64,000 nucleotides of DNA from an uncultured Rhodobacteraceae bacterium (GCA_913062865.1 CAJXWO010000001.1:39646-103645); one strand, 5' to 3'; shown: positions 5,622 to 47,344, counted from the stretch's first letter. Notes: generated from the letters alone by a model not told the origin. Made by a program: numbers and translations.

Positions 5622-5626
5622 CCCCT

Positions 5627-16925: not shown

Positions 16926-17001
16926 TATTGCAGAAATTTATATGATCAGTGCCGTGTTGCTGCGATCCGGTCAAGTTGCGACTGTCGAGCGAGAGGTTTG
17001 G

Positions 17002-17037: not shown

Positions 17038-17057
17038 GGAGATATCGGAGGGCGACC

Positions 17058-18131: not shown

Positions 18132-18143
18132 CGCGGCTGGCCG

Positions 18144-19400: not shown

Positions 19401-19438
19401 CGCGCCGGGGCGGCCGGAGCGTGCGCCGGGTGGCGCGG

Positions 19439-22614: not shown

Positions 22615-22625
22615 GGCAGGCTCCT

Positions 22626-23750: not shown

Positions 23751-23755
23751 TGGGG

Positions 23756-24457: not shown

Positions 24458-24575
24458 GGGATGTCTCCTTTCAACATGCCCTGTCGGGCATAGCCTATCG
24501 GCGTGGGGCGCGCCACGGTTCCGGTGGGACGCCCCGCCGCGCGTCTTTTCGCCCGCGCGGCAGAGCGGGGGGCCG

Positions 24576-25655: not shown

Positions 25656-25669
25656 GTGGGGTCTCCTTT

Positions 25670-27879: not shown

Positions 27880-27909
27880 GGTCTTTTTCTTCCTTATGTC
27901 TTCACTGTC

Positions 27910-29895: not shown

Positions 29896-29906
29896 GGCTC
29901 TGCTCC

Positions 29907-30779
29907 TCAGGCGCGCTTGGATTCGCTGACCAGCCGATTGACCATCGGCGTGAAGATCAGCTGCATGGCCAGGTCCATCTTGCCGCCCGGGATGACCAGG
30001 CTGTTGGCGCGGGTCATCCAGCTGTCGTGGATCATCGACATCAGGTAGGGAAAATCGATGCCGCGCGGGTTGGCGAAACGGATCACGACCAGGCTTTCGT
30101 CGGCGGTGGGGATCCAGCGCGCGATGAACGGGTTCGAGGTGTCGACCACGGGCACCCGCTGGAAGTTGATATCGGTCTGGGTGAATTGCGGGCAGATGCA
30201 GTGCACATAGGCATGCATGCGCCGCAGGATCACATCCGTGACGGCCTCGGTTGAGTAGCCCCGGCTGGCCTTGTCGCGGTGGATCTTCTGGATCCATTCG
30301 AGATTGACCACCGGCACCACGCCGATCTTGAGATCGGCGAGCGCGGCCAGATTGACCTCGTCATTGACCACGGCACCGTGCAGACCCTCGTAGAACAGAA
30401 GGTCCGAGTTTTCCTCGAAGGGCGCCCAGGCGGTGAAATGGCCGGGGGGCACGCCGTAGCGTTCGGATTCCTCGTCGTCATGGACGTAGTGACGGGTGCG
30501 GCCCTGGCCGGTTTCGCCATATTCGCGGAACACGCGCTCAAGCTCGCCCAGCTCGTTGGCTTCATAGCTGAAATGGCTGAAGGTCGCGTCGTTCTCGTCG
30601 TAGCGGCGGGCCAGTTCGGCCGTCATCGCGGCGCGGTCGTATTTGTGGAACGCATCGCCCTCGATCGAGACCGCCTTGACCCCTTCGCGGCGAAAGATCT
30701 GGTCAAAGGTCTTCTTGACCGTGCTGGTGCCTGCGCCGGACGAGCCGGTGACGCAGATGATCGGGTGTTTCTTGGACAT
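29907..30779 (-). CDS. prk: Phosphoribulokinase
   Basis: [17 protein letters not shown]-loop. 290 aa, the typical bacterial PRK length and sequence. Confidence 0.95.
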
Positions 30780-30792
30780 CTCTCAACCTTCC

Positions 30793-31812
30793 TTATTCGA
30801 CGCGGAACAGGCCGCGATTGCCGAAGAGCGCAGAGCGCTCTTCCTGGGGCAGGTCGTGGTAGCCCGCCACGCGCATGACCTTTTCCGCGCCGCCAAAGAC
30901 CAGCGGCACCCGCTCGTGGAGTGTTTCGGGCACGATATCGAGGATGGGCTCACTGCCGTCCGATGCCTTGCCGCCCGCGTTCTCGACCAGAAAGCCGATG
31001 GGCGCGCATTCGTAGACCAGCCGCAGGCGGCCCCGGGCGTAGCCCTCGCGCCGGTCGCCGGGATAGAGAAAGATGCCGCCACGGGTCAGGATGCGGTGGG
31101 TTTCGGCCACCAGCGACGCGATCCAGCGCAGATTGAAGTTGCGCCCGCGTGGACCTTCGGCACCGGCGACCAGATCGTCGATATAGGCGCGGATCGGATC
31201 GGGCCAGTGGCGGTAGTTCGATGCGTTGATCGCATATTCGTCCGAGTCGATGCCGACCCCGCTGGGGGCGTCCACCTCGACAAAGCTCTGCGTGTCGGGG
31301 TCCAGCACGAATTTCACGATGCCGTCGCCATAGGTCATCACGACGCTGCACTGGGGGCCGAAGATGGCATAGCCCGACGCGATCAGCTCGCGCCCCGGGC
31401 GCAGCACGCTGGCATCGCCTGTCTCGGCGGCGGGATAGAAGCCGAAGATCGTGCCGATGGAGACGTTGGTGTCGATGTTGGACGAGCCATCAAGCGGGTC
31501 GATGGCCAGGGCAAGCGTGCCGCCTGCGTTCAGCTCGACCACGCTGTCCTGCTCCTCGGACGCGTAGAAGCGCACGGCGCTGCCCGCGAGCTTGGCCATG
31601 AAGGCCTCGTCCGCGATCACGTCCAGCGCTTTTTGATGGTCGCCGCCGGTATTGGTGCCTGCGGCCTCGGCCAGGTCCTGGTCAATGCCGCCACGGGCGA
31701 TGCGGTGGGCAATCTCGGCAAAAACCTCGGCCATGCGCGCCATGGCGTCGGCAAGGCCCGGGTCGACGGTGGCTGATGCGGGCACCAGCGCCTTGGGTGT
31801 CGATGATGTCAC
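30793..31812 (-). CDS. cbbF: Class 1 fructose-1,6-/sedoheptulose-1,7-bisphosphatase
   Basis: [26 protein letters not shown] and RLVYECAP motifs. GTG start 31812 preceded by GGAGGAG. Confidence 0.9.
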
Positions 31813-31913: not shown

Positions 31914-32846
31914 ATGCTCGAAAGGCTTACCCTCAAGCAGTTGCGCAGCCTCAAGGCGATTGCCGCCTGCGGCTCCTTGGCCGATGCCGCGCGCGAACAG
32001 GCGCTGAGCTCTCCGGCAATTCACAGTCATATCAAGAAGATGGAAGATGTTCTGGGTCAGGCGACCCTGACCAAGGACGCCACCGACAAGAAACTGGTGC
32101 CCACCGCCCATGGCCAGGTGCTGATCGATGCCACGCGCCAGATCGAGGCCATCCTCGAGCGGGCCCGCGACAATTTGGACGCGTTGAGCCGCGGGAACAG
32201 GGGCCATGTGCGGCTTGGCTTCGAGTCCACGGGCCGTCTTTTCGCCGCCCGGCTGGTCGCCACGCTGCAAAAGACCTGCCCGGATATCGAGATTTCCTTC
32301 ACCGTCGCGAATCGTGCGCGAATCATCGAAGAGCTGGCGACCGGTCAGGTCGAGCTTGCGATCATGGGGCGGCCCCCGCGCGTGCCCCGTGTCGAGGCGG
32401 TGCCGGTCGGGTCGCACCCGTTCGGCGTGTTCGTGGCCCCGGACAGCCCGCTTGCGGACATGCAGGATTACGCCCCCGAAGAGCTTGTCCAGCACACGGT
32501 TCTGGCCCGGGAAAAGGGATCGACCACGCGTATCCTGCTGGACCGGTTCCTCGACCGGATCGAGGGCTACGGCACGCCGCGCATCGTCGAAATGGATTCG
32601 AACGAGACGATCAAGGAAGGCGTGATCGCGGGTCTTGGCGTGGCCATGCTGTCGCTGCACGTGGTCGAGCGGGAAATGCGGCAAAAGCTGCTGCGCCCGT
32701 TGGACTGGCCGGGTCTGCCGGTCATGCGCTACTGGTATTTGGTGGTGCCCGACGGACCAAAGATCCTGGAAAGCACGCATCGCGTCGAAGAGGCGATCCG
32801 CGCCCTGAACGGAGCCTTCCTGCCGCCGCAGTCCCGACCGGCCTGA
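31914..32846 (+). CDS. cbbR: LysR-family regulator CbbR, divergent from the Calvin-cycle operon
   Basis: HTH: LKQLRSLKAIAACGSLADAAREQALSSPAIHSHIKKMEDVLG. 310 aa, in the classic divergent position. Confidence 0.85.
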   Translation: MLERLTLKQLRSLKAIAACGSLADAAREQALSSPAIHSHIKKMEDVLGQATLTKDATDKKLVPTAHGQVLIDATRQIEAILERARDNLDALSRGNRGHVRLGFESTGRLFAARLVATLQKTCPDIEISFTVANRARIIEELATGQVELAIMGRPPRVPRVEAVPVGSHPFGVFVAPDSPLADMQDYAPEELVQHTVLAREKGSTTRILLDRFLDRIEGYGTPRIVEMDSNETIKEGVIAGLGVAMLSLHVVEREMRQKLLRPLDWPGLPVMRYWYLVVPDGPKILESTHRVEEAIRALNGAFLPPQSRPA

Positions 32847-32897: not shown

Positions 32898-33221
32898 TCA
32901 GCTGTCGGGGCTGCTCTTGCCCGGCTTGCGGGGCATGATGTTGATGTCTTGATAGAACGCCTTGACGCGGTAGCCGCGCGACATGAACTTGTCCATGTCC
33001 ACCAGAACCCGTTCAAGCCGCGCTTCGGACATGATGATGTAGATGATTACGCTTGAGTCGCTCATCAGCATCCCGGATTCGAGCCCCGCGGTGCCTGCGC
33101 CCGAGGCCGAGACCACGGTGTAGCCGCCGATCCCACGCTTCTTGAGCTGTTCGATGACCATGCGCTGAAGCTCGCCCGCCGTGATGATGGTCAGAAGCTT
33201 CTTCTGTTCGATTTGTCTCAT
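32898..33221 (-). CDS. sbtB: PII-like signalling protein, SbtB-type
   Basis: 107 aa. The pattern KKLLTIITAGELQRMVIEQLKKRGIGGYTVVSASGAG...IIYIIMSEARLERVL parallels cyanobacterial SbtB (KLVIVTEK...GAKGYTVMNTGGKG...). It sits directly downstream of sbtA. Confidence 0.65.
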   Translation of the reverse strand: MRQIEQKKLLTIITAGELQRMVIEQLKKRGIGGYTVVSASGAGTAGLESGMLMSDSSVIIYIIMSEARLERVLVDMDKFMSRGYRVKAFYQDINIMPRKPGKSSPDS

Positions 33222-33296
33222 GACGGTCTCATAGTTCCTGGGTGTCGGGCCCCATGGGCCGGTCGGGGCGTGCGGTCATGGGCGCGGGCGTCACGC

Positions 33297-34322
33297 TCAC
33301 ATACCCCACAGCATCTGTACCATGGCATAGTACAGCGGAATGCCGACGATGATGTTGAACGGAAAGGTCAGCCCCAGCGCCATGGTGAAATAGATCCCGG
33401 GCCGGGCTTCGGGGATGGCATAGCGTGCCACGGCGGGCACCACGATATACGAGGCCGAGGCCGAGAGCACCGCCAACAGCACCGCGTCGCCCACGCCAAG
33501 CCCGATCCAGAAGGCCAGCAGGATCGCGATGGCCGCGTTGACCGGCGGCGAAACGAAGGCGAAGGCAAAAAGCGCCTTGTCGATCTTGGCGCGCCCTTCG
33601 CTCATCTGCTTGCCCACCAGAAGGCCCATCTCGAGCAGGAAGAAGGCGAGCATGCCCTTGAAGATGTCATAGGTGAAGGGCAGCATCTCCGCCGTGCCCT
33701 CGGGGCCCGCGAGATACCCGATCACGAGGCTGCCGATCAGCAACAGCTGCGCGCCGTCGGTCAACGCCTCCTGCAGAACGTCGCGGATCGAGAGTGGTGC
33801 GAAATCGTCGTCCTCCTCGGGCGCGGTGCCGGTCTCGGCCGCCTGTTGCTGCATCGCTTCCTTCGCCCGCACCGCCGTGGCCAGAACAACGGCCATCAGG
33901 ATCGCGGGCGTTTCCATCAGCACCATGGCCACCGTCATATAGCCCCCGAACTCGACGGCGCGGTCGGCCAGGAACTGCTGCGTCGTGATGAAGGTCACGG
34001 CGCTGATCGAGCCGTAGGTCGCGGCGACGGCCGCGCTGTCGAACGGGTTGATCCGACGCGACAGGATATAGAAGGACACCGCCGGGACGAGGGCCGCCAT
34101 GAAGATCGCGGCGATGATCGCATAGATCCCGTCCGCGGGCAGGCCCCCCTCGGCCAGGGCCGATCCGCCCTTGAGGCCAAGCGCGACCAGAAGGTACAGC
34201 GTCAGGAACTTGGCGATCGCCGGCGGGATTTCCAGGTTCGAGCGCAACAGCCCGACACCCGTGCCCAGAACGAAGAACAGAACCGCGGGGTCCAGAAGGT
34301 TCGACAGAGCAGAGCTTAGCAT
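33297..34322 (-). CDS. sbtA: SbtA-family (DUF897) sodium-dependent bicarbonate transporter-like permease
   Basis: 341 aa with about 10 TM segments in two halves separated by an acidic loop (APEEDDDF). C-terminal ASASYIVVPAVARYAIPEARPGIYFTMALGLTFPFNIIVGIPLYY is typical of the family. ATG 34322 overlaps the upstream gene by 7 nt. Confidence 0.7.
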   Translation of the reverse strand: MLSSALSNLLDPAVLFFVLGTGVGLLRSNLEIPPAIAKFLTLYLLVALGLKGGSALAEGGLPADGIYAIIAAIFMAALVPAVSFYILSRRINPFDSAAVAATYGSISAVTFITTQQFLADRAVEFGGYMTVAMVLMETPAILMAVVLATAVRAKEAMQQQAAETGTAPEEDDDFAPLSIRDVLQEALTDGAQLLLIGSLVIGYLAGPEGTAEMLPFTYDIFKGMLAFFLLEMGLLVGKQMSEGRAKIDKALFAFAFVSPPVNAAIAILLAFWIGLGVGDAVLLAVLSASASYIVVPAVARYAIPEARPGIYFTMALGLTFPFNIIVGIPLYYAMVQMLWGM

Positions 34323-35311
34323 GCGCGCCCCCCATAAGCGTTCAAGGAGACCGAAGGTTCGGCCAGGCAGACACCGTAGGCGCCCGTTTCGATGAGCATG
34401 TCCGGGTCCGGGTCCATCCCGTCGGCCAGAACGGGATAAAGCGCGGCGGACGTGGTCCGGGCGATCCGGGCCAGGTTGGCGTGCCAGTCGGGCAGGGCGG
34501 TGCGTGTGGCCGGAAGGGGCAGGAGAACCACGTCGAGCCCCTCCAGCGCGCCGGGCCGGTCCGCAGCGGCCGGGTCGATCACGGCGGCGCGCAGCCCGTC
34601 GCCGCTGAAGGCCGGGCGGGTTTCGGCGCGCCCCCGGGCGAAGACGGGACGGAAATCCCTCCCCAGCCGCGATCCGTGCCAAACCAGGAGCCCACGCGGC
34701 GCCGCAGAGGCGCAGAGCCTGCGGGCCAGGGCCGCCGATTGTGCCATGGTCAGGCGCGGGTCGTGCAAATAGAGCGCGCCCACGCCATCGCGCAGGGCCC
34801 GCGCAACGCAGTCCCGCGCCCAAAGCGCGGGGTCCGCCGCGGGCGGCGTCACAAGGGCCACGCGCATGGGCAGGGCCAGCCGCGCCAGAACCCGCAGGTT
34901 CGACGGCAGGATCGGGCCCACGGCGGGCTGTGCCGGGTCCACCCAGGCAAGCTCGTTGCCCTCAATGCCCGTCGGCAGGCCGGAGCAGGCGGCGGCCTCG
35001 AAGACACTGAGATGGATGCGCCGGGTGGGAAAGTCATGGATATGCCGGATCAGCGGCCGCAGGCCTTGGGCCGACAGGCCGGTTTCCTCGTGAAGTTCGC
35101 GCAGAGCGGCCTGGGCCGCGCTCTCGCCCGGTTCGATCTTGCCGCCGGGAATTTCCCAACAGCCGGGCGAGGATTGGTCGGCCCGGCGCCGCGCCATGAG
35201 CACATGGCCCGCCGGGTTGCGTACCACGCAGGCAGCGACCTCCACCGGCCGCATCGACAACGCACGGGGGGAGGGACGAATGAGGGTTTTCATTCGGTCC
35301 ATGGCCAGCAT
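34316..35311 (-). CDS. Nudix (MutT-like) hydrolase fused to a thiamine-phosphate-synthase/TenI-like domain
   Basis: Nudix box WEIPGGKIEPGESAAQAALRELHEETGL, followed by an alpha/beta region of about 180 aa with the look of a TMP-TenI domain. ATG 35311 overlaps the upstream stop (TGATG); the longest ORF starts at 35323. Confidence 0.7.
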   Translation of the reverse strand: MLAMDRMKTLIRPSPRALSMRPVEVAACVVRNPAGHVLMARRRADQSSPGCWEIPGGKIEPGESAAQAALRELHEETGLSAQGLRPLIRHIHDFPTRRIHLSVFEAAACSGLPTGIEGNELAWVDPAQPAVGPILPSNLRVLARLALPMRVALVTPPAADPALWARDCVARALRDGVGALYLHDPRLTMAQSAALARRLCASAAPRGLLVWHGSRLGRDFRPVFARGRAETRPAFSGDGLRAAVIDPAAADRPGALEGLDVVLLPLPATRTALPDWHANLARIARTTSAALYPVLADGMDPDPDMLIETGAYGVCLAEPSVSLNAYGGRAC

Positions 35312-35526
35312 CAGTCCGGCCACACCCCGTAGGACGGCACGCTGGCAATGGCCGGTTGCGCCGGTGTCTTCTCCGAAGATGTTTTGGTGTGCTGGGCCCG
35401 TGCCCCAGCGGCGGACTCCGCCTGCGGCTTGCGCGCGGGCCGTTGCTTGGACGGGGCGGCGGGCTTGGCCGCCGTGCCCCGCTTGGCGGTGGGGCCGGAT
35501 TTTCCGGTGGCAGATTTCTCGCTCAT
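35311..35526 (-). CDS. Small basic, low-complexity (A/K/P/S-rich) protein ending in WPD; candidate McdB-like carboxysome protein
   Basis: 71 aa. The start overlaps the acRAF stop (ATGA) and the stop overlaps the next ATG (TGATG), so it fills the gap exactly on the operon strand. Composition suggests intrinsic disorder. The C terminus is SVPSYGVWPD. Confidence 0.55.
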   Translation of the reverse strand: MSEKSATGKSGPTAKRGTAAKPAAPSKQRPARKPQAESAAGARAQHTKTSSEKTPAQPAIASVPSYGVWPD

Positions 35527-35831
35527 GGTCCGAACTCTCCGAAAAGGGCGTCCGCCCGTGCCGCGAAGGCGCGCTGCGCCTTGTCAGCCGCGCCGTCCGC
35601 GCCGTCCTCGGAGGGGACGGTCACGTTGGCGTGGGTCTTGGCGAAACTGAGATCGGGATGGATGCCGGTCTCTTCTGACAGGTTTGCCAGGGCCTCGAGA
35701 AAGGCGCTGGTTTGGGCATAGGAGTCGAATTCGAAGCGCCTATGGATCGCCGCGCTCCCTGCGACCTGTTTCCAGGGCTCCGGCAGATCCGGGCCGGGTG
35801 TCGAAGCCGTGTTGTCTTGGTTCTTGGTCAT
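35523..35831 (-). CDS. Pterin-4a-carbinolamine dehydratase-like protein (acRAF-type alpha-carboxysome RuBisCO assembly factor)
   Basis: PCD/DCoH-like core: RRFEFDSYAQTSAFLEALANLSEETGIHPDLSFAKTHANVTV. The canonical HHP is replaced by IHP, consistent with the non-catalytic carboxysomal subgroup. It occupies the position after the shell genes. Confidence 0.7.
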   Translation of the reverse strand: MTKNQDNTASTPGPDLPEPWKQVAGSAAIHRRFEFDSYAQTSAFLEALANLSEETGIHPDLSFAKTHANVTVPSEDGADGAADKAQRAFAARADALFGEFGP

Positions 35832-35917
35832 GGTCTTCCGCTTTCATGTTCTGGACTGCCGGGCAGTGCGCCCGACAATCCAGACAGAACGAAGCCAGAA
35901 GTTTCCTTCAAGCCGTG

Positions 35918-36217
35918 TCAGGGCGTCGCCGTGGTGGGCAGGACGTTTTCCACCTCGCCGTGGGGACGGGCGATGATATGCGCCGCGGCCAGGCCGTCGC
36001 CCACGCGTTCGCACGCATCGGCACCCGCACGCACGGCGGCGTTGACGGCACCGGTTTCGCCCCGGACCATGACGGTCACGTAGCCCCCGCCGACGAACTG
36101 CCGCGCGATCAGGCGAACCTCCGACGCCTTGGTCATGGCGTCGGCCGCCTCGATGGCCGGGACCAACCCGCGGGTTTCGATCATTCCGAGGGCGATGCCC
36201 ACTTTTTCACTCGCCAT
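35918..36217 (-). CDS. csoS1: Carboxysome shell hexamer protein CsoS1 (BMC-H, Pfam00936)
   Basis: ALGMIETRGLVPAIEAADAMTKASEVRLI...GGGYVTVMVRGETGAVNAAVRAG...AHIIARPH, the canonical BMC domain. Confidence 0.95.
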   Translation of the reverse strand: MASEKVGIALGMIETRGLVPAIEAADAMTKASEVRLIARQFVGGGYVTVMVRGETGAVNAAVRAGADACERVGDGLAAAHIIARPHGEVENVLPTTATP

Positions 36218-36288
36218 GGTGTTCTCCTTTCTGGCTAAGTATTCTCTCGTTCATCGCGCCACCCGGACCGTCCAGGTGCCGCAAACTC

Positions 36289-36567
36289 TCAGGGACTGGC
36301 CCGCAACGGGCCGTGCCATTTATCTTCGGTCCAATCGTCGATGATGCCGCCGATGGTCAGGTCGGTCATCACGCGGGGATCGCCTGTGGCGATCCGGGCG
36401 GACGAGTAGGCGATGGTGATGACGAAATCGCCTTCCCGGGCGCCGACCGCGTCGACCGCGACCTCGACATTGCCCTTGGCATCCTCGAGCACCCGCAGTT
36501 TCCGGGCCTGAAGTCCGGCCACCCGCTGGGTGGTCACGAGATCACGGACGACACGCATGATGTTCAT
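36289..36567 (-). CDS. csoS4B: Carboxysome vertex pentamer protein CsoS4B (BMC-P, EutN/CcmL family)
   Basis: 92 aa: MNIMRVVRDLVTTQRVAGL...AVDAVGAREGDFV... The ATGA overlaps csoS4A. Confidence 0.85.
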   Translation of the reverse strand: MNIMRVVRDLVTTQRVAGLQARKLRVLEDAKGNVEVAVDAVGAREGDFVITIAYSSARIATGDPRVMTDLTIGGIIDDWTEDKWHGPLRASP

Positions 36568-36833
36568 GTCGCCACCTCGCCGGGCTCGTCCGCATCCCAG
36601 TAGTCGATAATGCCCACGATGGTCAGGTCCGAGGGGTATTTGGAGCTGCCCGCGGCATCCTTGGCCGCCGAACTGCCCACGGCAATGACCCAGTCGCCCT
36701 TTTTGCACCCGATGGGGTCCACGGCCACCGACCGGCTGCCGCTTTTCTCGCGCAGGACCAAAAGACGGTTGTTCTCGAGCTGGGTAATCCGCGCTGTGGC
36801 CACCAGGGTGCCCTCGACTTGAAAGATCTTCAT
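36564..36833 (-). CDS. csoS4A: Carboxysome vertex pentamer protein CsoS4A (BMC-P)
   Basis: 89 aa: MKIFQVEGTLVATARI...LLVLRE...AVDPIGCKKGDWVIAV. The ATGA overlaps csoS3. Confidence 0.85.
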   Translation of the reverse strand: MKIFQVEGTLVATARITQLENNRLLVLREKSGSRSVAVDPIGCKKGDWVIAVGSSAAKDAAGSSKYPSDLTIVGIIDYWDADEPGEVAT

Positions 36834-38329
36834 TGTTCGGCCTCCAGAAACTCGAGCGCGCCGCCGGTGCCGGGCCGCAGCGCGGCCTCCACCTCGAGCG
36901 CGGTGTCCGGTCTCATCGCCAGGACCGCCGCGCGCATGCGCCGGGCGACCTCGGCGGCCGCCGCATCGTCGCCGGGGATGTCCGGATCGTAGCTGCGCAG
37001 GACGAGCACCGGGACGGTGTGCATCCGCGCGCCCAGAATATGCAGCCCGACCCTGAGATCGGCGGCGCCTTCCTCGACGGAATTCATCTGGGCCTGAAAG
37101 GCCAGGTTGCGCAGCTGCACGTCATCCACCGGATCGCCGATCACGATCAGCTTTTCTGCATGGCCGGCCTCGATATAGGGGCCGGCAAATTTTTGCAGCA
37201 CCGCGTCGACCTGGGCGATGTTGTTCTTGAGAAGGTAGCCGCAGAACCAGCGCATCCCCTCGGTTGCGGTATCATCGGGATGCACGCCTGCGGCGCGGGC
37301 CACCTCGGTGCGCACGGCCTCCTTGGCCGCGTCGCGCGGCTTGTCCAGCGTCATGCGGTAAAGATCGGCGGCATCGACAAAACGGTCCGGGTCCATCCGG
37401 CCCGCTGCATCGGGGACATGGACGCGGATCGCATCCGTGTCGGTGTCGAGCCCGATCAGCAGAAGCGCGATCTCGTCGCCCGCGCCGTGCATGGCCTGGG
37501 CCGCGGCCTGAAACTCGATCAGGCGCTCGTGCAGGGCGGTGATGGCGCGGCTGTTGCAGCTGCCATGAGCTGCGCAGCCGGCGTGGGACGGGTCGACGCT
37601 CGAAAAATGGTAGACACCCACCTTGAGGTAACGCGTGCCCGCATCGGGCCTGTTGGGCCGGCCTTCACGGTGGCGGGTCAGCTCGACCTCTTCCCATTCG
37701 TGCAGGTTCTGCGCCACGTTGAACATCGCGCCTGCAAAGGACTTGCGCGCGGTCACGATCGACAGCGGGATCCGCAGCACCGCGCCCAGAAGGCCCGCAA
37801 GTCGACCGTCCGCGCAGGGCGTGATGTCGACCGCGTGAAAGCCCCAGCGCCGGATCAGCACATCCACGGGCTCACCATCGTCCGAGGCATAGCGATCCCG
37901 CTCGGTGCCGCTTTTGACCAGGGTGGCGAACAGACGGCAGGCCGCGCGGGCATGAAGCGCGCCCATGTTCAGCGGGGTCGTCCAGTCGGCTTCGAACCAG
38001 GCTGGATCGGTATCGAAACCGATGGCGGCCAGCCGTGCGGCGGCTTGGTCCGGAAAGCCTGCGTCGAACTGCTGGGGGGCAAGGCCGCGCAGCGTCTCGG
38101 ACAAGGTGGCAAAGCCGGTCTCGACCTCTGCCTCGCGGCGGTCGAGATCGCGCGCGATCTCGGGCTCGGCAAAGGGGTGGCGCCGTCCACCGGCCCGCAG
38201 ACCGGGTGCCGGGGCCGCCTGCGCCATCGCCGGTGCCATCGCAGGGCCGGGGCGCTGAGCGTAGGCGGGCGTCACTCGGTTGCCGCGCCAGGCCTTGTTC
38301 GGCCCGGAAGTGGTACGAAGCGCCGACAT
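36830..38329 (-). CDS. csoS3: Carboxysome shell carbonic anhydrase CsoSCA (CsoS3)
   Basis: 499 aa in the canonical position after csoS2. It has a CxDxR motif (TPCADGRL) and a later His/Cys pair (HFSSVDPSHAGCAAHGS), consistent with the beta-CA-like zinc site of CsoSCA. Confidence 0.85.
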   Translation of the reverse strand: MSALRTTSGPNKAWRGNRVTPAYAQRPGPAMAPAMAQAAPAPGLRAGGRRHPFAEPEIARDLDRREAEVETGFATLSETLRGLAPQQFDAGFPDQAAARLAAIGFDTDPAWFEADWTTPLNMGALHARAACRLFATLVKSGTERDRYASDDGEPVDVLIRRWGFHAVDITPCADGRLAGLLGAVLRIPLSIVTARKSFAGAMFNVAQNLHEWEEVELTRHREGRPNRPDAGTRYLKVGVYHFSSVDPSHAGCAAHGSCNSRAITALHERLIEFQAAAQAMHGAGDEIALLLIGLDTDTDAIRVHVPDAAGRMDPDRFVDAADLYRMTLDKPRDAAKEAVRTEVARAAGVHPDDTATEGMRWFCGYLLKNNIAQVDAVLQKFAGPYIEAGHAEKLIVIGDPVDDVQLRNLAFQAQMNSVEEGAADLRVGLHILGARMHTVPVLVLRSYDPDIPGDDAAAAEVARRMRAAVLAMRPDTALEVEAALRPGTGGALEFLEAEQ

Positions 38330-40416
38330 CAGCCCGCCGCCCCGCCGGAAACGGTGACCTTGGCGCAGCTGTCGGGCGTGCCGCCGGTCGCGCCGGTGAC
38401 CGGGCTCACGGGATCATTCGTGGGCGCTTTGGATTTGAACGGTTTGGCGCCTGCGAAGGCCTGAGCGCTGCCCGCCCGCTGGGACGGGTTGCGGTTCGTC
38501 GCGATATAGCCCTCGGTGCCGGTGACAGAGCTGTTTTCGCTCCAGCCCGAGCCGGTGATGGCGGCCCCGCGGGTCGCGCCTTCGCCGGTGATGTTGCCAT
38601 GGGCTGGACGCTGGCAGGGCTGACCGCCACGGCTGGGGGCCTGGAACTCGACATTGCCGGTGATCTTGCCGTCGCCCTGGGCGAAGGTGCCGGTGATGGC
38701 GGATGCGCCGCCCGGCTTGGCTGCCTCGGGGGCGGCTTCGCGGGCCCGGACATGGGAGGCGCGCTGGGGCGAGGAGACCGAGAACCCGGCGATCGACTGG
38801 GTCACGGGATCCTGTGCCCCGGCGTCGGGCTGGGTTTCGCCCTGCACGAAGTAGGCAGAGCCGGTGATGGCGCGGTCGGCACCCCGTCCGGTGCCGGACA
38901 CGGTGGGATCGTTCAGCGGCACGTCGCCGGTGATGGCGCGGGGGGCGCGCGGCGCGCGGCGGGCCGCCTCGGCCTCGGCCTGGGCAGGGTCGCACCAGTC
39001 CTGGGCCCCGGTGGCGCCATAGTAGGGCGTCCCGGTCATCGCCGCGCAGGTGCCGTGCTCCGAGCCGGTCACGCGGCCGTCATGTTCCATCATCGGGCCC
39101 GAGACCGTCTGGCCGCCCCAGGTCTGCGACAGGGTCACCTTGGCGCCGGTGGCGGGGTCAGAGCGTCCGTCAGCCGGGGCCGGGTCCATTTCGTCGCGGG
39201 CAGGGGCCAGGTATTGCGAGCCCGTAAGGCTGCGCGCGGCACCACCCTCGTCGCCGGTCACCCGGACCGAACGACCGATGGCGGTGCCCGAGACGGCGTG
39301 CCCGCTCAGCGTCTGTTCCACGGGGCGTTCCGTGTCCCGGCTGCGCGATCCCACGGCCCGGGCCGAACGGCCCAGATTGCTGCCAAACACCGACTGGCCA
39401 TGGGGCTGGGACTGGCGTTGGAACTGGGCACCGACGGCGACATAGCTGTCGGGGCGTGCGTCGAGATCGTCGGCCACGGTCTGATCCGCATTACCGGTGA
39501 TCCGCACATCGGCGCTGTCCTCGTCGCCGGTGATGCGCACGGTCGAGCGGACCATGGTGCCCGAGACGGTGAGGCCTGCATTGGTGCGGGCATGGCCGAC
39601 CTTGCCCATGGAGGCGCGGTAGCCGCCCTCGGCGCCGCCCACGTACTGGGTGCCGGTCAGGGGCTTGTCATAGCCCGCCTCGGCCCCGGTCATGGCGCGG
39701 CCTGCGGCATAGCTGAGCCCGGTCACGGTTGCGTTCGACACGGCGGTGGTGACGCTGGGCACCTTGGGCGGATGGGTGAGCTCGCCCCGGCGCGGGGACC
39801 GGGCGGGTTGAGCGGCCGCGGGTGCGGGTGCCCCGGACGCGGCTGGGGCAAGCTGTGAGCTGGGCACATCGGCGGGCATGGCTGCCTCGCGAAAGCCCGA
39901 GCGGACCCGCTCCTGCGCGGGCGGCAGGCCGCCCTTGCCCGCGGACAGCGCCTTGCGTCGGGCGATGGAGGCCTCGCGGCCCGACCCGAAAGCGGCCGAT
40001 GCGGCGGGTGCCGGAGTTGCAGGGGTGGCGGCCGCGACGTGCGGTGTGGCGGTGTCGGTATCGTTCGGCATGGCGGCCTCCCGGAAGCCTGAGCGCACGC
40101 GCTCCTTGGCCGGCGGCAATCCCCCCTTACCGGCCGACAGCGCCTTGCGGCGGGCGACGGACGCCTCGCGACCGCTGGGCACATGAACGGGGGGCAGGGG
40201 GGCGCTGACGGGCGCGGATGGGGCGGTGTCCGGCTCGTGCGCCGCCATCGGGGCGGGGGCGGCCGGCGTGTCGGTGGGCATCGCTGCGTCGCGGAAGCCC
40301 GAGCGAACCCGCTCCGATGCGGCGGGCAGACCCGCCTTTCCCTGGGACAGCGCCCGGCGCCGCGCCATCGAGGCCGCGCGTCCGGACATCCCTTGAAAAT
40401 TCGCATCAGTGCTCAT
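38329..40416 (-). CDS. csoS2: Carboxysome scaffold protein CsoS2
   Basis: 695 aa, repetitive and likely disordered. Three N-terminal repeats of the form GRxAS(M/V/I)ARR(R/K)ALSxGKxGLP(A/P)AxERVRSGFR(D/E)AAMP. The middle and C-terminal regions are full of (V/I/L)(T/S)G triplets. It lies between cbbS and csoS3. Confidence 0.9.
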   Translation of the reverse strand: MSTDANFQGMSGRAASMARRRALSQGKAGLPAASERVRSGFRDAAMPTDTPAAPAPMAAHEPDTAPSAPVSAPLPPVHVPSGREASVARRKALSAGKGGLPPAKERVRSGFREAAMPNDTDTATPHVAAATPATPAPAASAAFGSGREASIARRKALSAGKGGLPPAQERVRSGFREAAMPADVPSSQLAPAASGAPAPAAAQPARSPRRGELTHPPKVPSVTTAVSNATVTGLSYAAGRAMTGAEAGYDKPLTGTQYVGGAEGGYRASMGKVGHARTNAGLTVSGTMVRSTVRITGDEDSADVRITGNADQTVADDLDARPDSYVAVGAQFQRQSQPHGQSVFGSNLGRSARAVGSRSRDTERPVEQTLSGHAVSGTAIGRSVRVTGDEGGAARSLTGSQYLAPARDEMDPAPADGRSDPATGAKVTLSQTWGGQTVSGPMMEHDGRVTGSEHGTCAAMTGTPYYGATGAQDWCDPAQAEAEAARRAPRAPRAITGDVPLNDPTVSGTGRGADRAITGSAYFVQGETQPDAGAQDPVTQSIAGFSVSSPQRASHVRAREAAPEAAKPGGASAITGTFAQGDGKITGNVEFQAPSRGGQPCQRPAHGNITGEGATRGAAITGSGWSENSSVTGTEGYIATNRNPSQRAGSAQAFAGAKPFKSKAPTNDPVSPVTGATGGTPDSCAKVTVSGGAAG
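39874..40383 (-). repeat. Three tandem coding repeats (108 nt each, separated by P/A-rich linkers) encoding the CsoS2 N-peptides
   Basis: Repeats at 40276-40383, 40066-40173 and 39874-39981. Copies 2 and 3 differ at only 3 of 36 residues. Confidence 0.85.
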
Positions 40417-40484
40417 GGTTTATCCCGTTTTTCTGGGTCAGGCGGCTGGCAGAGCAGCGGCGCGGTGCGGCGTGCGGCGGCGGA

Positions 40485-40814
40485 TCAGGCGCGGTGGACG
40501 ACGAAGGCCATGCCCTGCGACTGGGCGTAGTTGTCATAGGCGATCAGGCGCACATGCATGCCCGGGTTGGCACGACGGCAGGCCTCGATCTCGGTCAGGA
40601 CCTCTTCGACCGACTGGGTGCCGAAAAGCGGCAGCTTCCACAGGTACCAGAAGTTCGAGAACGCTTTTTCCGGTTCGGTATATTCGACCGCCGGGTTCCA
40701 CCCGCGCGCGATGCAATAGGCGATCTGCTGGGCGATGCGTTCCGGCGTCATGGGCGGCAGGTACGAGAAGGTCTCGGTCCGGGGCTGTGTGGCGGGATAG
40801 GCGGCTTGGGACAT
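40485..40814 (-). CDS. cbbS: RuBisCO small subunit, form IA
   Basis: 109 aa: [10 protein letters not shown]...[16 protein letters not shown]...[11 protein letters not shown]...VRLIAYDN. Confidence 0.95.
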
Positions 40815-40852
40815 GGGTCTCTCCGTAAATCTCTGGGCAGCGGGCGATGGGA

Positions 40853-42271
40853 TCAGCGCTGAACGTCAAGCTTGTCGACAGTGTCGAAGTCGAACTTGAT
40901 TTCCTTCCAGGTCTCCATGGCGATCGCCAGTTCCGGGCTGTGCTTGGCGGCGTCGGTGAGGATGGCGCGGCCTTCCTTTTCGACGGCGCGGCCCTGGTTG
41001 CGGGCCTCGGTACAGGCTTCGAGCGCCACGCGGTTGGCATGGGCCCCTGCCGCGTTGCCCCAGGGGTGACCCAGCGTGCCGCCGCCGAACTGCAGGCAGG
41101 CGTCATCGCCGAAGATCTGCACCAGCGCTGGCATGTGCCAGACATGGATGCCGCCCGAAGCGACGGGCATCACGCCCGGCATCGCGCCCCAGTCCTGGTC
41201 GAAGAACAGGCCGCGCACGCGGTTTTCCGGCACGAAGTGTTCGCGCATGAGGTCGACCCAGCCCAGCGTGGCCTCGCGGTCGCCCTCGAGCTTGCCCACG
41301 ACTGTGCCCGAGTGCAGGTGGTCGCCGCCCGACAGGCGCAGACACTTGGTCAGCACGCGGAAATGGATGCCGTGCATCGGGTTGCGGTCGACCACGGCGT
41401 GCATCGCGCGGTGGATGTGCAGCAGCATCCCGTTTTCGCGACACCAGTTGGCGAGGCCCGTGTTGGCCGTGAAGCCCGCTGTGAAGAAGTCGTGCATGAT
41501 GATCGGCGCGCCAAGCTCCTTGGCGAATTCGGCGCGCTTGTACATCTCTTCCGGGGTGGCGGCGGTGACGTTCAGGTAGTGGCCCTTGCGTTCGCCGGTC
41601 TCGGCCTCGGCCTTCTGGACGGCTTCCATGACGAACTCGAACCGGTGCTGCCAGCGCATGAAGGGCTGCGAGTTGATGTTCTCGTCATCCTTGGTGAAGT
41701 CGAGACCGCCGCGAAGACATTCATAAACGGCGCGGCCGTAGTTCTTCGCAGACAGGCCCAGTTTGGGCTTGATGGTACAGCCCAGAAGCGCGCGGCCATA
41801 CTTGTTCAGCCGGTCGCGCTCGACCTGGATGCCGTTGGGCGGGCCGCCGCAGGTCTTCACATAGGCCATGGGAAAGCGGATGTCCTCGAGCCGCAGCGAG
41901 CGCACGGCCTTGAAGCCGAAGACGTTGCCGACGAGCGAGGTCAGAACGTTCACGACCGAGCCTTCTTCGAACAGGTCGATCGGATAGGCGATGAAGGCGT
42001 AGAAAGCGGTGTTGTCGCCTGGGACCGCTTCGATCCGGTAGGCGCGTCCCTTGTAGTATTCGAGGTCTGTCAGAAGGTCGGTCCAGACGGTGGTCCAGGT
42101 GCCCGTCGAGCTTTCGGCGGCCACGGCGGCCGCTGCTTCCTCGAAAGGCACGCCCTCCTGGGGGACAACCTTGAACACCGCCAACAGGTCCGAGTCGAGC
42201 GGGATATAATCGGGGGTCCAATACGTCTTGGCGTAATCCTTGACGCCGGCTTGGTACGTTTTCTGAGCCAC
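40853..42271 (-). CDS. cbbL: RuBisCO large subunit, form IA (GTG start)
   Basis: 472 aa: [67 protein letters not shown] and [12 protein letters not shown]. An AGGAG RBS lies 7 nt upstream of the GTG. Confidence 0.97.
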
Positions 42272-42342
42272 GCAACATCTCCTAAAGTCGAAATTCTGAG
42301 CAGGTGACTGCCCCGGTTGCTCAAACGTTACGCCCTGTGTGA

Positions 42343-42363
42343 ATTATTCGACCAATTAATAAT
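42343..42363. promoter_or_regulatory. Candidate LysR/CbbR operator in the cbbL / cbbR-like divergent spacer
   Basis: ATTATT-N9-AATAAT perfect inverted repeat (contains a T-N11-A core) in an AT-rich patch of the 117-bp spacer. Confidence 0.35.
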
Positions 42364-42388
42364 TGCGCCAAACGCATAAGTATGAGTA

Positions 42389-43279
42389 ATGGAATGTATG
42401 AGGGTCGAACTACGCCAACTCGAGATGCTGGATGCCGTTGCGCGGCACGGGTCCGTGACCCAGGCGGCGGGGGCGCTGGGGGTCACCCAACCGGCAATTT
42501 CCATTCAAATGCGGAAACTTGAAGATGTCGTGGGCCTTCCCGTCTTCGAGAAGGTCGGCCGCACGATCCAGCTGACCGAGGCCGGGCAGGAGGTGCTCAG
42601 CCACGCCCAGCGGGTGCGCCGTGTGCTCGACGATCTGGAAGAAAGCATTCACCACTACAAGGGTGTCAGCCGCGGCAGCCTGCGAATCGCGGTCGTGTCC
42701 ACGGCGAATTATTTCATCACCGAAGACATCGCGCGGTTCCGCAGGGCCCACCCGGATGTAGAGATCAATCTCAAGGTCGCCAACCGCGACCGCATCCTTG
42801 CCATGCTCGAGGCGAACGAGGTCGATCTGGCCATCACCGGGCAGCCGCCCGAGGACTCAGACCTCGTCGCACGGCCCTTCAAGGACAACCCGCTGGTCAT
42901 TATCGCACCCACGGATCACCCCCTGGTGGGCAGCCGGATCAGTGATCCGTCAGACCTTGCGCGGTTTCCTTTCGTCGTGCGCGAACCGGGCTCGGGAACG
43001 CGGGCCGCGATGGAGCGGATCTTTGGTGAACACGGGGTCGAGGTGAAGATTTCCTGCGTCCTGTCCTCGAACGAGGCGGTCAAGCAGGCGGTGCAGGCCG
43101 GGCTGGGGCTGGCCATGATCTCGCGCCAGACCACGGATCTCGAGATCGAGACAGGGCGGCTGGCCTGCCTGGTCAGCCATGTCTTTGCCATGGAGCGGAA
43201 GTGGTATGTCGTCTACCGCAATTTCCGCCGGATGCCGCCCGCCGCGTCCAAGTTCCGCAGTCAGCTCCTGAAGGCCTAG
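42389..43279 (+). CDS. cbbR: Second LysR-family regulator of CbbR type, divergent from the carboxysome operon
   Basis: HTH: LRQLEMLDAVARHGSVTQAAGALGVTQPAISIQMRKLEDVVG. 296 aa. An alternative ATG lies at 42398. Confidence 0.8.
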   Translation: MECMRVELRQLEMLDAVARHGSVTQAAGALGVTQPAISIQMRKLEDVVGLPVFEKVGRTIQLTEAGQEVLSHAQRVRRVLDDLEESIHHYKGVSRGSLRIAVVSTANYFITEDIARFRRAHPDVEINLKVANRDRILAMLEANEVDLAITGQPPEDSDLVARPFKDNPLVIIAPTDHPLVGSRISDPSDLARFPFVVREPGSGTRAAMERIFGEHGVEVKISCVLSSNEAVKQAVQAGLGLAMISRQTTDLEIETGRLACLVSHVFAMERKWYVVYRNFRRMPPAASKFRSQLLKA

Positions 43280-43497
43280 GCCGGCGCGGTCTGGCCCAGG
43301 CGTTGCGCCGCGTCGAGCGCGAGCGGCGACAGGCCGGTGCCACCCTCTGCGACAATTGCATCCAGTTCGGCCCGCATGCGCGGGTCCCAGAAATCGCGCA
43401 GATGCGCGGCCACGGCGCCGGGCTTGTCTGCGATGGGCTGGGTCTCGAAGAACCCGGCGATCTGGTTGGCCATGCGGATCAGCTTGTCATGCGACAT
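43276..43497 (-). CDS. fdsD: Formate dehydrogenase delta subunit
   Basis: 73 aa, MSHDKLIRMANQIAGFFE...HLRDFWDPRM, the typical FdsD family sequence. Last gene of the fds operon. Confidence 0.85.
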   Translation of the reverse strand: MSHDKLIRMANQIAGFFETQPIADKPGAVAAHLRDFWDPRMRAELDAIVAEGGTGLSPLALDAAQRLGQTAPA

Positions 43498-44308
43498 CGT
43501 GGGCTCCGGTCTCGATACGAGAGGGGTGGGCGTAAAGGTCGAACGCGCCCTTGCGGGCGAAGGCGGCGATGGTGATGCCGGCTGCCTGGGCTATCTCGAC
43601 CGCGCGGGCGGTCGGGGCCGAGACGGCGATCAGAACGGGGATGCCCGCCAGCGCGCATTTCTGAACGAGTTCGACACTGACGCGGCTGGTCATGACCACG
43701 GCGCCGGTGCCGGGATCTTCGCGCGATGCGGCCAGAGCGCCGATCAGCTTGTCCAGCGCATTGTGCCGCCCCACGTCCTCGCGCACGGCTACAAGCGTGC
43801 CGTCGGGCCGCAGGAAGCCTGCCGCATGGGCGGCATGGGTCCTGTCATGAAGCTGCTGATGCGCGCGCAACTGGTCGGGTGCCGAGGCGATCACGTCGCG
43901 GTTCCATCGCAGGTCCGGCGCGGCGACACGAGGCAGGGGGCGGATAGCTTGCTGCAGGCTGTCGATGCCGCACAGGCCACAACCCACCGGACCGGCCATG
44001 GCGCGGCGCCGTTCGGCCATCGCAGCGGCCCGCTCCGGGGACAGCCACATGCGCGCCTCGATGCCCTGGAGCTGTTCGACGATCTCGATCTCGCCCAACT
44101 GGGCCGGGTCCGACACGATCCCCTCGCTCAGGGAAAAGCCGCGCGCGAAATCCTCAAGGTCCGCCGGCGTGGCCATCATCACCGCCTGGGTCGCGCCATT
44201 GTAGACCAGCGCCACGGGCACCTCGTCGGGCAGCGCCCGGGTGATCCCGCGCGCCCCGTCCCCCCGGCTGGAGACACCGGGCACCGAGATATGCGCCCGC
44301 TTGGTCAT
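43487..44308 (-). CDS. fdhD: Formate dehydrogenase accessory sulfurtransferase FdhD (FdsC)
   Basis: 273 aa. Contains GCGLCG (the conserved cysteine loop), EDVGRHNALDKLIG and MTSRVSVELVQK. Confidence 0.9.
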   Translation of the reverse strand: MTKRAHISVPGVSSRGDGARGITRALPDEVPVALVYNGATQAVMMATPADLEDFARGFSLSEGIVSDPAQLGEIEIVEQLQGIEARMWLSPERAAAMAERRRAMAGPVGCGLCGIDSLQQAIRPLPRVAAPDLRWNRDVIASAPDQLRAHQQLHDRTHAAHAAGFLRPDGTLVAVREDVGRHNALDKLIGALAASREDPGTGAVVMTSRVSVELVQKCALAGIPVLIAVSAPTARAVEIAQAAGITIAAFARKGAFDLYAHPSRIETGAHDVA

Positions 44309-47214: not shown

Positions 47215-47234
47215 CCTTTGGGGGTCAGCGGGGA

Positions 47235-47326
47235 AAGACGCGTCGACGCGTCTTGGGCGCGCGGGGTCGACCCCGCGCGTAAAGCCGTTTCGAAACGGCT
47301 TGAAACAAGGGCCTTCGAAGGCCCTT
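47235..47326. repeat. Array of four adjacent perfect palindromes in the fdsB-fdsA spacer
   Basis: AAGACGCGTCGACGCGTCTT (47235-47254), CGCGCGGGGTCGACCCCGCGCG (47258-47279), AAGCCGTTTCGAAACGGCTT (47282-47301) and AAGGGCCTTCGAAGGCCCTT (47307-47326). Each was checked base by base. Confidence 0.9.
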
Positions 47327-47344
47327 TTCCTGCGGCGCGGGCGG

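Follow-up and report, generated by a model that had tools for sequence, protein, structure and literature searches.

An uncultured Rhodobacterales bacterium with a probable alpha-carboxysome CO2-concentrating module in its Calvin-cycle regulon

An alpha-carboxysome locus of 12 genes lies on the minus strand between positions 32898 and 42271 of a 64,000-nt stretch of DNA from an uncultured Rhodobacteraceae bacterium (GCA_913062865.1, CAJXWO010000001.1:39646-103645); the whole stretch is called the window here. From the open reading frames (ORFs), their translations, and Pfam and NCBIfam matches, the order of transcription is cbbL-cbbS-csoS2-csoSCA-csoS4A-csoS4B-csoS1-acRAF-McdB-like-NUDIX-SbtA-family-P-II-like (Table 1), with cbbL first and the P-II-like gene last. 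A first-pass annotation had placed the core alpha-carboxysome genes in canonical order on one strand, and Pfam, NCBIfam, and PDB searches agree with it for every gene that it named. Its gene list stopped at acRAF, however; four more genes follow, and the P-II-like gene forms the real end at 32898. The stop/start junctions it reported from csoS2 to csoS4B are exact in the sequence, being TGATG at csoS2/csoSCA and ATGA at csoSCA/csoS4A and csoS4A/csoS4B. A second run of overlapping stop and start codons joins acRAF through sbtA, with ATGA between acRAF and the McdB-like ORF, TGATG between that ORF and the NUDIX gene, and a 7-nt overlap of NUDIX and sbtA. Each gene is full length with a family-level match, and no frameshift or truncation was found in the cluster.

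The best PDB match of CbbL is the Halothiobacillus neapolitanus enzyme (1SVD/6UEW, about 947 bits), followed at a distance by the form IC structures 1BXN (613 bits) and 5NV3 (603 bits). CbbL is assigned to form IA because it scores 947 bits against the carboxysomal 1SVD and 613 bits against the form IC 1BXN. Its active-site motifs are kept, namely Lys-Pro-Lys, the carbamylated-Lys/Asp/Glu, the His, and the Lys. CsoS2 carries three near-identical N-peptides of the form GRxASxARRxALSxGKxGLP....RVRSGF, which are encoded by three 117-nt direct repeats at 39869-40387 (78-79% identical, with spacings of 192 and 210 nt). Past the N-terminal region there are 23 [VILM][TS]G motifs, mainly in triplets at 11-residue spacing, and an alignment finds the protein colinear with H. 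neapolitanus CsoS2B, the C-terminal shell-binding end included. CsoSCA matches PDB 2FGY at E of about 1e-87; its PCADGR and H...GCAAHGS motifs align with the H. neapolitanus sequence, and the beta-class catalytic Cys/Asp/Arg/His/Cys residues are present. The shell set consists of one BMC-H protein, CsoS1, whose NCBIfam BMC_CsoS1 score of 184 bits exceeds the cutoff of 166 bits, and two BMC-P proteins, CsoS4A/B. No second RuBisCO was found in the 64 kb. The predicted products of the locus include every defining feature of alpha-carboxysome loci: cbbLS, CsoS2, CsoSCA, shell proteins, and acRAF. The same list, with a usually divergent CbbR, was given by Axen et al. 2014, who count the pterin-dehydratase-like accessory protein acRAF in the common core (PMC4207490).

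Directly after acRAF, and overlapping its stop codon, lies a small ORF that ends in GVWPD and has no Pfam match. MacCready et al. 2021 described all alpha-McdB proteins as disordered, 51-169 amino acids (aa) long, and ending in V(I)WPD at the C-terminus (PMC8359340). The 71-aa ORF fits this definition, its disorder being judged from composition alone. No ParA/McdA-like ORF was found anywhere in the window, and for that reason the McdB-like gene is termed an orphan; such orphan mcdB genes, set in cso operons that lack mcdA, are already on record (PMC8359340). The NUDIX gene comes next. Many of its homologs of similar length are fusions of MutT with TMP-TENI (PF02581), annotated as 8-oxo-dGTP diphosphatase; the C-terminal half of the protein has no Pfam match even at E=5, and comparison with these homologs identifies it as a degenerate TMP-TENI-like domain. 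The last two genes, a membrane gene of the Sbt_1 family and a P-II-fold gene, adjoin each other and are putatively concerned with bicarbonate transport. The Sbt_1 match covers the full transporter length at 352 bits (Pfam), while the match to Synechocystis SbtA (PDB 7CYE) is distant and partial, with E=3.5e-20. The P-II-like protein is closest in the PDB to TTHA0516 (2CZ4, E=4e-6), a better match than the carboxysome-associated CPII (5D4N).

Table 1. Features of the alpha-carboxysome locus and of its surroundings, with positions counted from the first letter of the window
Feature	Position	Strand	Basis
cbbL, form IA RuBisCO large subunit, 472 aa	40853-42271	-	Pfam RuBisCO_large 464 bits
cbbS, RuBisCO small subunit, 109 aa	40485-40814	-	Pfam RuBisCO_small 130.6 bits
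csoS2, disordered scaffold protein, 695 aa	38329-40416	-	Pfam CsoS2_M
csoSCA (csoS3), carboxysomal carbonic anhydrase, 499 aa	36830-38329	-	Pfam CsoSCA_N, CsoSCA_cat, CsoSCA_C; PDB 2FGY
csoS4A, pentameric vertex protein, 89 aa	36564-36833	-	Pfam EutN_CcmL 80 bits
csoS4B, pentameric vertex protein, 92 aa	36289-36567	-	Pfam EutN_CcmL 70.6 bits
csoS1, sole BMC-H hexamer shell protein, 99 aa	35918-36217	-	Pfam BMC; NCBIfam BMC_CsoS1 184 bits
acRAF (pterin-dehydratase-like)	35523-35831	-	Pfam Pterin_4a; PDB 4LOW 'acRAF' E=6e-19
Orphan alpha-McdB-like protein, 71 aa	35311-35526	-	VWPD C-terminus, A/P/K/S-rich
MutT-like NUDIX hydrolase, divergent C-terminal extension, 331 aa	34316-35311	-	Pfam NUDIX; NCBIfam PRK08999
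SbtA-family putative Na+/bicarbonate transporter, 341 aa	33297-34322	-	Pfam Sbt_1 352 bits
P-II-like regulator, 107 aa	32898-33221	-	Pfam P-II 44 bits
cso-linked LysR/CbbR-type regulator	42398-43279	+	Pfam HTH_1 and LysR_substrate; NCBIfam NF045990 272 bits
cbbR-cbbL intergenic control region	42272-42397	-	Promoter-like site, cbbL ribosome-binding site
Rhodobacter-type cbbR, divergent from cbbF	31914-32846	+	NCBIfam NF045990 'CbbR (Rhodobacter)' 353 bits
cbb operon, cbbF to cbbY	20715-31812	-	NCBIfam, Pfam; public gene calls agree
NAD-linked formate dehydrogenase cluster fdsG-B-A, fdhD, fdsD	43276-49356	-	Pfam, NCBIfam; public gene calls agree

The locus is not confined to this organism. A scan for CsoSCA in one genome per GTDB species gave 44 loci, among which the identity to the window protein is 79% in Brevirhabdus pacifica DSM 27767, 74% in a Salibaculum metagenome-assembled genome (MAG), and 64% in Roseivivax sediminis. 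A MAG labelled Sphingomonadaceae (73%), a 'Rhodospirillales' MAG (61%), and a fragment in an Aliiroseovarius MAG complete the set of near relatives; a search of the protein database further yields Ruegeria sp. THAF57 and a Planktomarina MAG. No match in the GTDB scan reached 100%, so the species is either absent from the GTDB representatives or masked there, and a scan of metagenomes gave few close relatives. The closest non-identical CsoSCA, at 89%, is a partial one on L054 (AACY020521958.1), presumably Global Ocean Sampling data going by the AACY prefix. The window organism is a distinct uncultured lineage, with 89% on this partial contig and 79% in Brevirhabdus as the nearest matches. The genera named among these relatives all belong to Rhodobacterales in the NCBI taxonomy, and at least six other public Rhodobacterales genomes, cultured strains among them, carry the cluster of cso plus cbb genes. 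Gene order from the upstream LysR through NUDIX is kept in all of the closest relatives. The whole supercluster, LysR<->cbbLS-csoS2-csoSCA-csoS4AB-csoS1-acRAF-(McdB)-NUDIX-SbtA-P-II<-cbbR->cbbF-prk, recurs in Ruegeria and in locus L016, and in Ruegeria it runs on through tkt-gap-pgk. CbbL is 92-95% identical in four close loci and CsoS1 is 93-98% identical to its homologs in related loci, whereas CsoS2 is only about 60% identical across genera; CsoSCA is 57-79% identical across five loci. Since CbbL and CsoS1 are far better kept than CsoS2, purifying selection appears to act on the structured proteins.

The first-pass annotation had held that a Rhodobacteraceae carboxysome would be unusual. 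This stands insofar as no paper on Rhodobacterales carboxysomes was found in the full-text literature, subscription-only literature excepted, under Rhodobacteraceae, Roseobacter, Brevirhabdus, Roseivivax, Salibaculum, or THAF57; it does not stand if taken to mean a single case, since several Rhodobacterales have the same cluster. Some of the proteins have been named before in public automated annotation, one of them as 'carboxysome shell carbonic anhydrase'. The supplements of the bacterial microcompartment (BMC) catalogue of Sutter 2021, in the portion considered here, list Rhodobacteraceae with a MIC2 BMC only.

Neighbour-joining (NJ) trees were built for CsoSCA, for CbbL, and for a concatenation of CbbL, CbbS, CsoSCA, CsoS4A, and CsoS4B (1171 columns, 200 bootstraps). 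The Rhodobacterales-type loci group together in all three trees and are monophyletic in 200 of the 200 bootstraps of the concatenated one. Loci of Geminicoccaceae and Elioraea are sister to this clade in the CsoSCA and concatenated trees, and the gamma-/betaproteobacterial clade is distant. The copy number of csoS1 follows the same division, with one copy in the Rhodobacterales clade and two in most other alphaproteobacterial loci of the set. Two members of the Rhodobacterales clade, L016 (CAYOSE010000039.1) and L003 (CAZCBM010000209.1), are labelled 'uncultured Sphingomonadaceae' and 'uncultured Rhodospirillales'; these labels may reflect mis-binning or misclassification.

The McdB-like and NUDIX genes that follow acRAF are also shared. 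Small ORFs ending in VWPD occupy the matching position in five relatives (L001-L004 and L016). Wherever the sequence reaches far enough downstream, essentially every related locus has a NUDIX gene after acRAF/McdB; these loci number about 38 and span Alpha-, Beta-, and Gammaproteobacteria and Vulcanimicrobiota. The gene lies 1.2-4.3 kb downstream of csoSCA (L001-L051). No paper on a carboxysome-linked NUDIX was found in the full-text literature, again with the exception of subscription-only literature. According to Axen 2014, cyanobacterial alpha loci always carry a gene of the Ham1 family (PMC4207490). Ham1 is another nucleotide house-cleaning enzyme, and a parallel with the carboxysome-linked NUDIX is possible. 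The slot beyond NUDIX varies. In the window, as in L016, Roseivivax, Ruegeria, and an Elioraea MAG, SbtA and P-II fill it. Brevirhabdus has DabB and DabA there instead, with a 249-aa ORF between them, an assignment that Pfam confirms; tblastn and ORF size indicate the same arrangement for Salibaculum. These DabB-x-DabA slots span L004 13876-19428 and L001 13411-18975, against 32898-34322 in the window. The slot past NUDIX behaves as an interchangeable site for transporters of dissolved inorganic carbon (DIC), which is typical of working loci for CO2-concentrating mechanisms.

Two regulators frame the operon. The cso-linked LysR/CbbR gene, for which the public gene call gives 293 aa, is divergent from cbbL, and a LysR homolog is found at the matching position in the related loci examined. 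The cbbR-cbbL intergenic region is A/T-rich and contains a sigma-70-like TTGGCG-17-AATAAT at 42371..42343 on the minus strand, a consensus match only, as well as AGGAG 9 nt upstream of the GTG start of cbbL. Just beyond the P-II-like gene, the second regulator (31914-32846) matches the Rhodobacter-type CbbR model over its full length, and cbbR homologs facing cbbF occur at the matching position in L004, L001, L016, and L051. The cbb operon that it faces has the order cbbF, prk, tkt, gap, pgk, cbbA, rpe, class-V aminotransferase, redoxin, cbbZ, cbbY. CbbY scores 251 bits against PDB 4UAR, 'Protein CbbY', which is the R. sphaeroides protein. On the opposite side from the cbb operon, fdsGBA-fdhD-fdsD adjoins the cso regulator.

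The soundness of the contig was examined through exact-protein look-ups of CsoSCA, CbbR, and the cso-linked LysR. The neighbourhood of the cbb/cso junction is identical on 4 contigs, and the cso/fds junction is identical on 6 contigs from four samples, comprising two ENA assemblies and two JGI metagenomes (PR_CR_10_Liq_*). The overlap between the ENA contig and the window begins only at about 15.4 kb, and the contig runs about 89 kb past the window's right end, so the window comes from a different, independent assembly. A chimeric contig, which the first-pass annotation had named as a possible objection, is excluded by the recurrence of the exact proteins with the same neighbours at both junctions in independent assemblies. 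The absence of mobility genes and of a composition break, as stated in the same annotation, was borne out. In synonymous codon usage the cso block and the non-CBB (Calvin-Benson-Bassham) flanks are correlated at r=0.983, against 0.989 in a split-halves control, and GC at the third codon position (GC3) is flat at 0.81-0.87. GC content peaks at 0.73 over csoS2, where GC at the second position (GC2) reaches 0.66; the peak results from the richness of CsoS2 in Ala, Gly, Pro, and Arg, which acts at codon position 2. A foreign-island composition was therefore rejected. Neither an integrase nor a transposase turned up among the ORFs annotated in the 64 kb. Mobile-element boundaries were also sought and rejected, as neither direct nor inverted repeats bracket the block, the repeats that encode the csoS2 N-peptides being the only notable ones.

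Flanking genes supply the placement of the host. Among the 120 best homologs of TrgB, every match named to order or below belongs to Rhodobacterales, with genera that include Albidovulum, Shimia, Sulfitobacter, Aliiroseovarius, and Thalassovita. TrgB identity does not exceed 54% among these homologs, the self-match and one 71% match aside, so that the organism has no close sequenced relative where trgB is concerned. The top five matches of FdsA are from Rhodobacteraceae, and trgB lies about 1.2 kb from an mscK-like gene in secondary replicons of Paracoccus and Pseudorhodobacter. The flank genes that the first-pass annotation had recognised are indeed present (cfa-trgA-trgB-cysK, cbbF-P-T-G-(pgk)-A, and aglEFGAK, with CbbY matching as described above). 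Flank genes, synteny, the Rhodobacter-type CbbR, and CbbY support a host in Rhodobacterales; the Rhodobacteraceae-type host that had been proposed is upheld at the level of the order by TrgB, FdsA, the trgB-mscK synteny, and CbbR, and not at any finer level.

Taken with the trees, these results make it probable that the window holds a functional-looking alpha-carboxysome module for concentrating CO2, set within the Calvin-cycle regulon of an uncultured member of Rhodobacterales. The module would belong to a Rhodobacterales-specific clade of such loci, passed on by descent or by transfer between members of the order, for which plasmids or chromids are possible vehicles, and would not be a recent import from Gamma- or Betaproteobacteria. 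The way in which it might work can be outlined step by step from homology to characterised systems. The SbtA-family transporter, tuned by its P-II-like partner, would build up bicarbonate in the cytoplasm. CsoS1 hexamers and CsoS4A/B pentamers would form the shell, and CsoS2 would use its three N-peptides to bind form IA RuBisCO and its [VI][TS]G repeats and C-terminus to bind the shell. Within the shell, CsoSCA would turn bicarbonate into CO2. acRAF would help the assembly of RuBisCO, and the orphan McdB-like protein may act on the distribution of carboxysomes. Transcription of cso would start from a divergent, CbbR-controlled promoter, with one of the two CbbR-type regulators specific to cso and the other, of Rhodobacter type, facing cbbF. 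The cbb operon would regenerate ribulose 1,5-bisphosphate, CbbY would clear the inhibitor xylulose 1,5-bisphosphate, and CbbZ, the aminotransferase, and glycerate kinase would salvage 2-phosphoglycolate. The adjoining NAD-formate dehydrogenase could provide both NADH and CO2. The formate dehydrogenase beside the locus here, along with the NiFe hydrogenase that flanks the Roseivivax locus, suggests facultative autotrophy driven by formate or H2.

Several points weigh against this interpretation. The whole case is built on sequence, and the trees are NJ trees on loci chosen by their similarity to the query. Genes for rRNA and ribosomal proteins are missing from the window, which confines the placement of the host to the order. 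CsoS2 scores 181 bits in NCBIfam, under the equivalog cutoffs of 850 and 1100, although this is to be expected of a divergent disordered protein. The P-II-like protein resembles the characterised CPII weakly (5D4N, E=9e-4), and SbtB is not among its PDB matches. The ORFs annotated in the 64 kb include no BMC-T protein (CsoS1D), McdA, CbbQ/O, or CbbX; any of these that the system needs must come from another part of the genome. CsoS1D, though frequent, stands outside the alpha-carboxysome core of Axen 2014 (PMC4207490). The cultured relatives, finally, are described as chemoheterotrophs.

A real carboxysome could also serve a purpose other than autotrophy, as a means of recapturing CO2 or as an electron sink in mixotrophic or photoheterotrophic cells, for instance by refixing CO2 from formate or organics in obligate organoheterotrophs. 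Such a role in CO2 recapture or redox balance during mixotrophy is the main physiological alternative, yet on balance we hold it to be unlikely. The window has genes for the uptake and catabolism of sugars and compatible solutes (agl, beta-glucosidase, TRAP, BCCT), the formate dehydrogenase beside the operon releases CO2, the cultured carriers are described as heterotrophs, and in Rhodobacter, Rhodopseudomonas, and other purple non-sulfur bacteria the CBB cycle does serve as an electron sink. A bicarbonate pump and a carboxysome are, however, a costly adaptation to low external CO2 for which a pure redox sink has no need, and a complete cbb operon, CbbY and CbbZ included, is linked to the locus, as are lithotrophic energy modules (formate dehydrogenase in the window, NiFe hydrogenase in Roseivivax).

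It is less probable still, to the point of being improbable, that the locus is an evolutionary relic that looks intact and is silent or fails to assemble in a heterotroph. The missing CsoS1D, McdA, and CbbQ/O in the 64 kb and the single csoS1 paralog would agree with such a relic. Nevertheless, Prochlorococcus has a single csoS1 as well, and the H. neapolitanus alpha-carboxysome has reportedly been reconstituted in E. coli with CsoS1D, McdA, and CbbQO dispensable for assembly. Intact reading frames, the retention of catalytic and scaffold motifs, the pattern of purifying selection across genera, the architecture kept in at least six Rhodobacterales genomes, and the host-like codon usage all speak against decay. 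It is highly improbable, and largely refuted by the comparisons made here, that the operon is an island recently acquired from a chemoautotroph of Gamma- or Betaproteobacteria, or a chimera in which assembly or binning joined it to a Rhodobacterales backbone. In favour of such an origin are the known horizontal movement of alpha-carboxysome loci (PMC1904183, PMC8359340), the GC of 0.73 over csoS2, the patchy spread among Rhodobacterales genera, and the short Ruegeria THAF57 record. Against it, the GC peak comes from the amino-acid composition of CsoS2 with GC3 unchanged, codon usage equals that of flanks devoid of mobility genes and bracketing repeats, both junctions recur in independent assemblies of four samples, and the locus nests in the Rhodobacterales clade within alphaproteobacterial loci, far from those of Gamma- and Betaproteobacteria.

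The module that we favour, an alpha-carboxysome of the Rhodobacterales clade, shares with the H. neapolitanus cso operon (structures 1SVD, 2FGY, 8B12, with an acRAF of the 4LOW type) the core order cbbL-cbbS-csoS2-csoSCA-csoS4A-csoS4B-csoS1-...-acRAF, the form IA RuBisCO, the catalytic motifs of CsoSCA, and the N-peptides, [VI][TS]G repeats, and C-terminal peptide of CsoS2. H. neapolitanus has three csoS1 genes and four CsoS2 N-peptides, against one and three here, and CsoS2 is 695 aa long compared with 863-869 aa for the H. neapolitanus CsoS2B chains in the PDB. Unlike in H. neapolitanus, no bacterioferritin-like gene, McdA, CbbO/Q, or CsoS1D is found nearby, the linked transporter is SbtA with P-II instead of DAB, a NUDIX gene is present, and the operon joins directly to a Rhodobacter-type cbb operon.

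Nitrobacter is the textbook case of an alphaproteobacterial alpha-carboxysome. Other alphaproteobacterial loci, namely those of Bradyrhizobium (ORS278, STM3809, and denitrificans), Geminicoccaceae, and Elioraea/Acetobacteraceae, have the same order as the window, with a divergent LysR upstream and NUDIX after acRAF. Most of them differ from it in having two csoS1 genes and, usually, a DabB-like gene downstream, and their CsoSCA is 50-57% identical. The Bradyrhizobium and other Acetobacteraceae loci branch farther from the Rhodobacterales clade than those of Geminicoccaceae and Elioraea. The loci of Brevirhabdus, Roseivivax, Ruegeria THAF57, Salibaculum, and L016 are like the window in their single csoS1, McdB-like ORF, NUDIX, and second cbbR facing cbbF-prk-tkt; those of Brevirhabdus and Salibaculum depart from it by carrying DabB-x-DabA in place of SbtA/P-II. 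The outer flanks differ too, with hydrogenase genes in Roseivivax and formate dehydrogenase in the window.

The cbb half of the supercluster resembles the cbb regulon of Cereibacter (Rhodobacter) sphaeroides, with a Rhodobacter-type CbbR divergent from cbbF-prk-tkt-gap-...-cbbA and with CbbY. In contrast to C. sphaeroides, the cbb operon of the window has no form IC or form II RuBisCO gene, the form IA enzyme coming from the divergent carboxysomal operon, and pgk, rpe, the aminotransferase, the redoxin, and cbbZ are added. An Sbt_1 gene followed by a small gene of P-II fold beside carboxysome genes is reminiscent of cyanobacterial SbtA/SbtB and of the CPII of chemoautotrophs; by the E-values given above for 7CYE (a partial match) and 5D4N the relation is distant, and the role in bicarbonate transport is a predicted one. 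All of this describes a canonical alpha-carboxysome system in an unusual, though not unique, host order, and not a new kind of system. Its less familiar aspects are the host order, the direct fusion with a Rhodobacter-type cbb regulon that bears two CbbR paralogs, and the NUDIX gene after acRAF/McdB.

A broader proposal, which we put forward tentatively and with some doubt, is that Rhodobacterales own streamlined, order-specific superclusters defined by a single CsoS1, an orphan McdB, a conserved NUDIX, a slot in which SbtA/P-II and DAB can be swapped, and a fusion to a Rhodobacter-type cbb regulon with a second CbbR. It would imply facultative lithoautotrophs that build carboxysomes, with NUDIX as an accessory. 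The Roseobacter and Rhodobacter groups are usually seen as heterotrophs or photoheterotrophs, and those that fix CO2 use non-carboxysomal RuBisCO of form IC or II. If the proposal is true, several roseobacters and paracocci that are called heterotrophs would be facultative lithoautotrophs, living on formate or H2 and building carboxysomes, and the NUDIX hydrolase linked to their carboxysomes would count as an accessory factor of this lineage that has so far escaped recognition. A conserved module of carboxysome and bicarbonate pump in several genera adds overlooked candidates for facultative autotrophy. Because three cultured strains bear the cluster, namely Brevirhabdus pacifica DSM 27767, Roseivivax sediminis KCTC 23444, and Ruegeria sp. 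THAF57, genetically tractable relatives are at hand for direct tests of whether carboxysomes form and autotrophy is facultative. The compact set of ten genes plus a transporter pair may also suit engineering, and it gives an example of how a cso operon can be connected to the host's own cbb regulon by means of two CbbR regulators.

The energy modules beside the cluster vary with the host. Where the window has fdsGBA-fdhD-fdsD, the locus of Roseivivax sediminis is flanked by genes for the large and small subunits of a NiFe hydrogenase (L002 1974-3548 and 17710-18672). Within 16900-23750 of the window lies a set of genes related to 2-phosphoglycolate and glycerate, made up of glycerate 2-kinase, CbbY, CbbZ, the redoxin, and the class-V aminotransferase (of the aspartate/serine-glyoxylate type), together with a tartrate/isocitrate-dehydrogenase-like gene and an FGGY-type sugar kinase, the last two identified from sequence only. 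The rest of the window encodes cfa-trgA-trgB-cysK-mscK, a photolyase, TRAP and BCCT transporters, glycerate kinase, glucokinase, beta-glucosidase, and aglEFGAK. The sole RNA gene detected with Rfam is a tRNA-Ser(GGA) at 11115-11204 on the plus strand, 21 kb from the cso operon and with no integrase near it.

A few observations concern the replicon and the source of the DNA. Plasmid carriage was considered and rejected when a tblastn search of PLSDB with CsoSCA gave only plasmids of Thiodictyon and Nitrobacter and none of Rhodobacterales. The trgB and mscK-like genes (5181-10360 in the window) are adjacent on 'plasmid' records of 1.5-2.2 Mb (NZ_CP039965.1, NZ_CP141053.1). These records are secondary replicons of Pseudorhodobacter turbinis and of Paracoccus species, and the window may therefore sit on a chromid and not on the main chromosome. 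The NCBI record of Ruegeria sp. THAF57 that holds the cluster is only 210 kb long and could be an extrachromosomal replicon. Identical fragments of the locus (L049, L050) come from JGI 3300000547 and 3300000517, named PR_CR_10_Liq_2 and PR_CR_10_Liq_3; going by the names alone, these samples may be saline.

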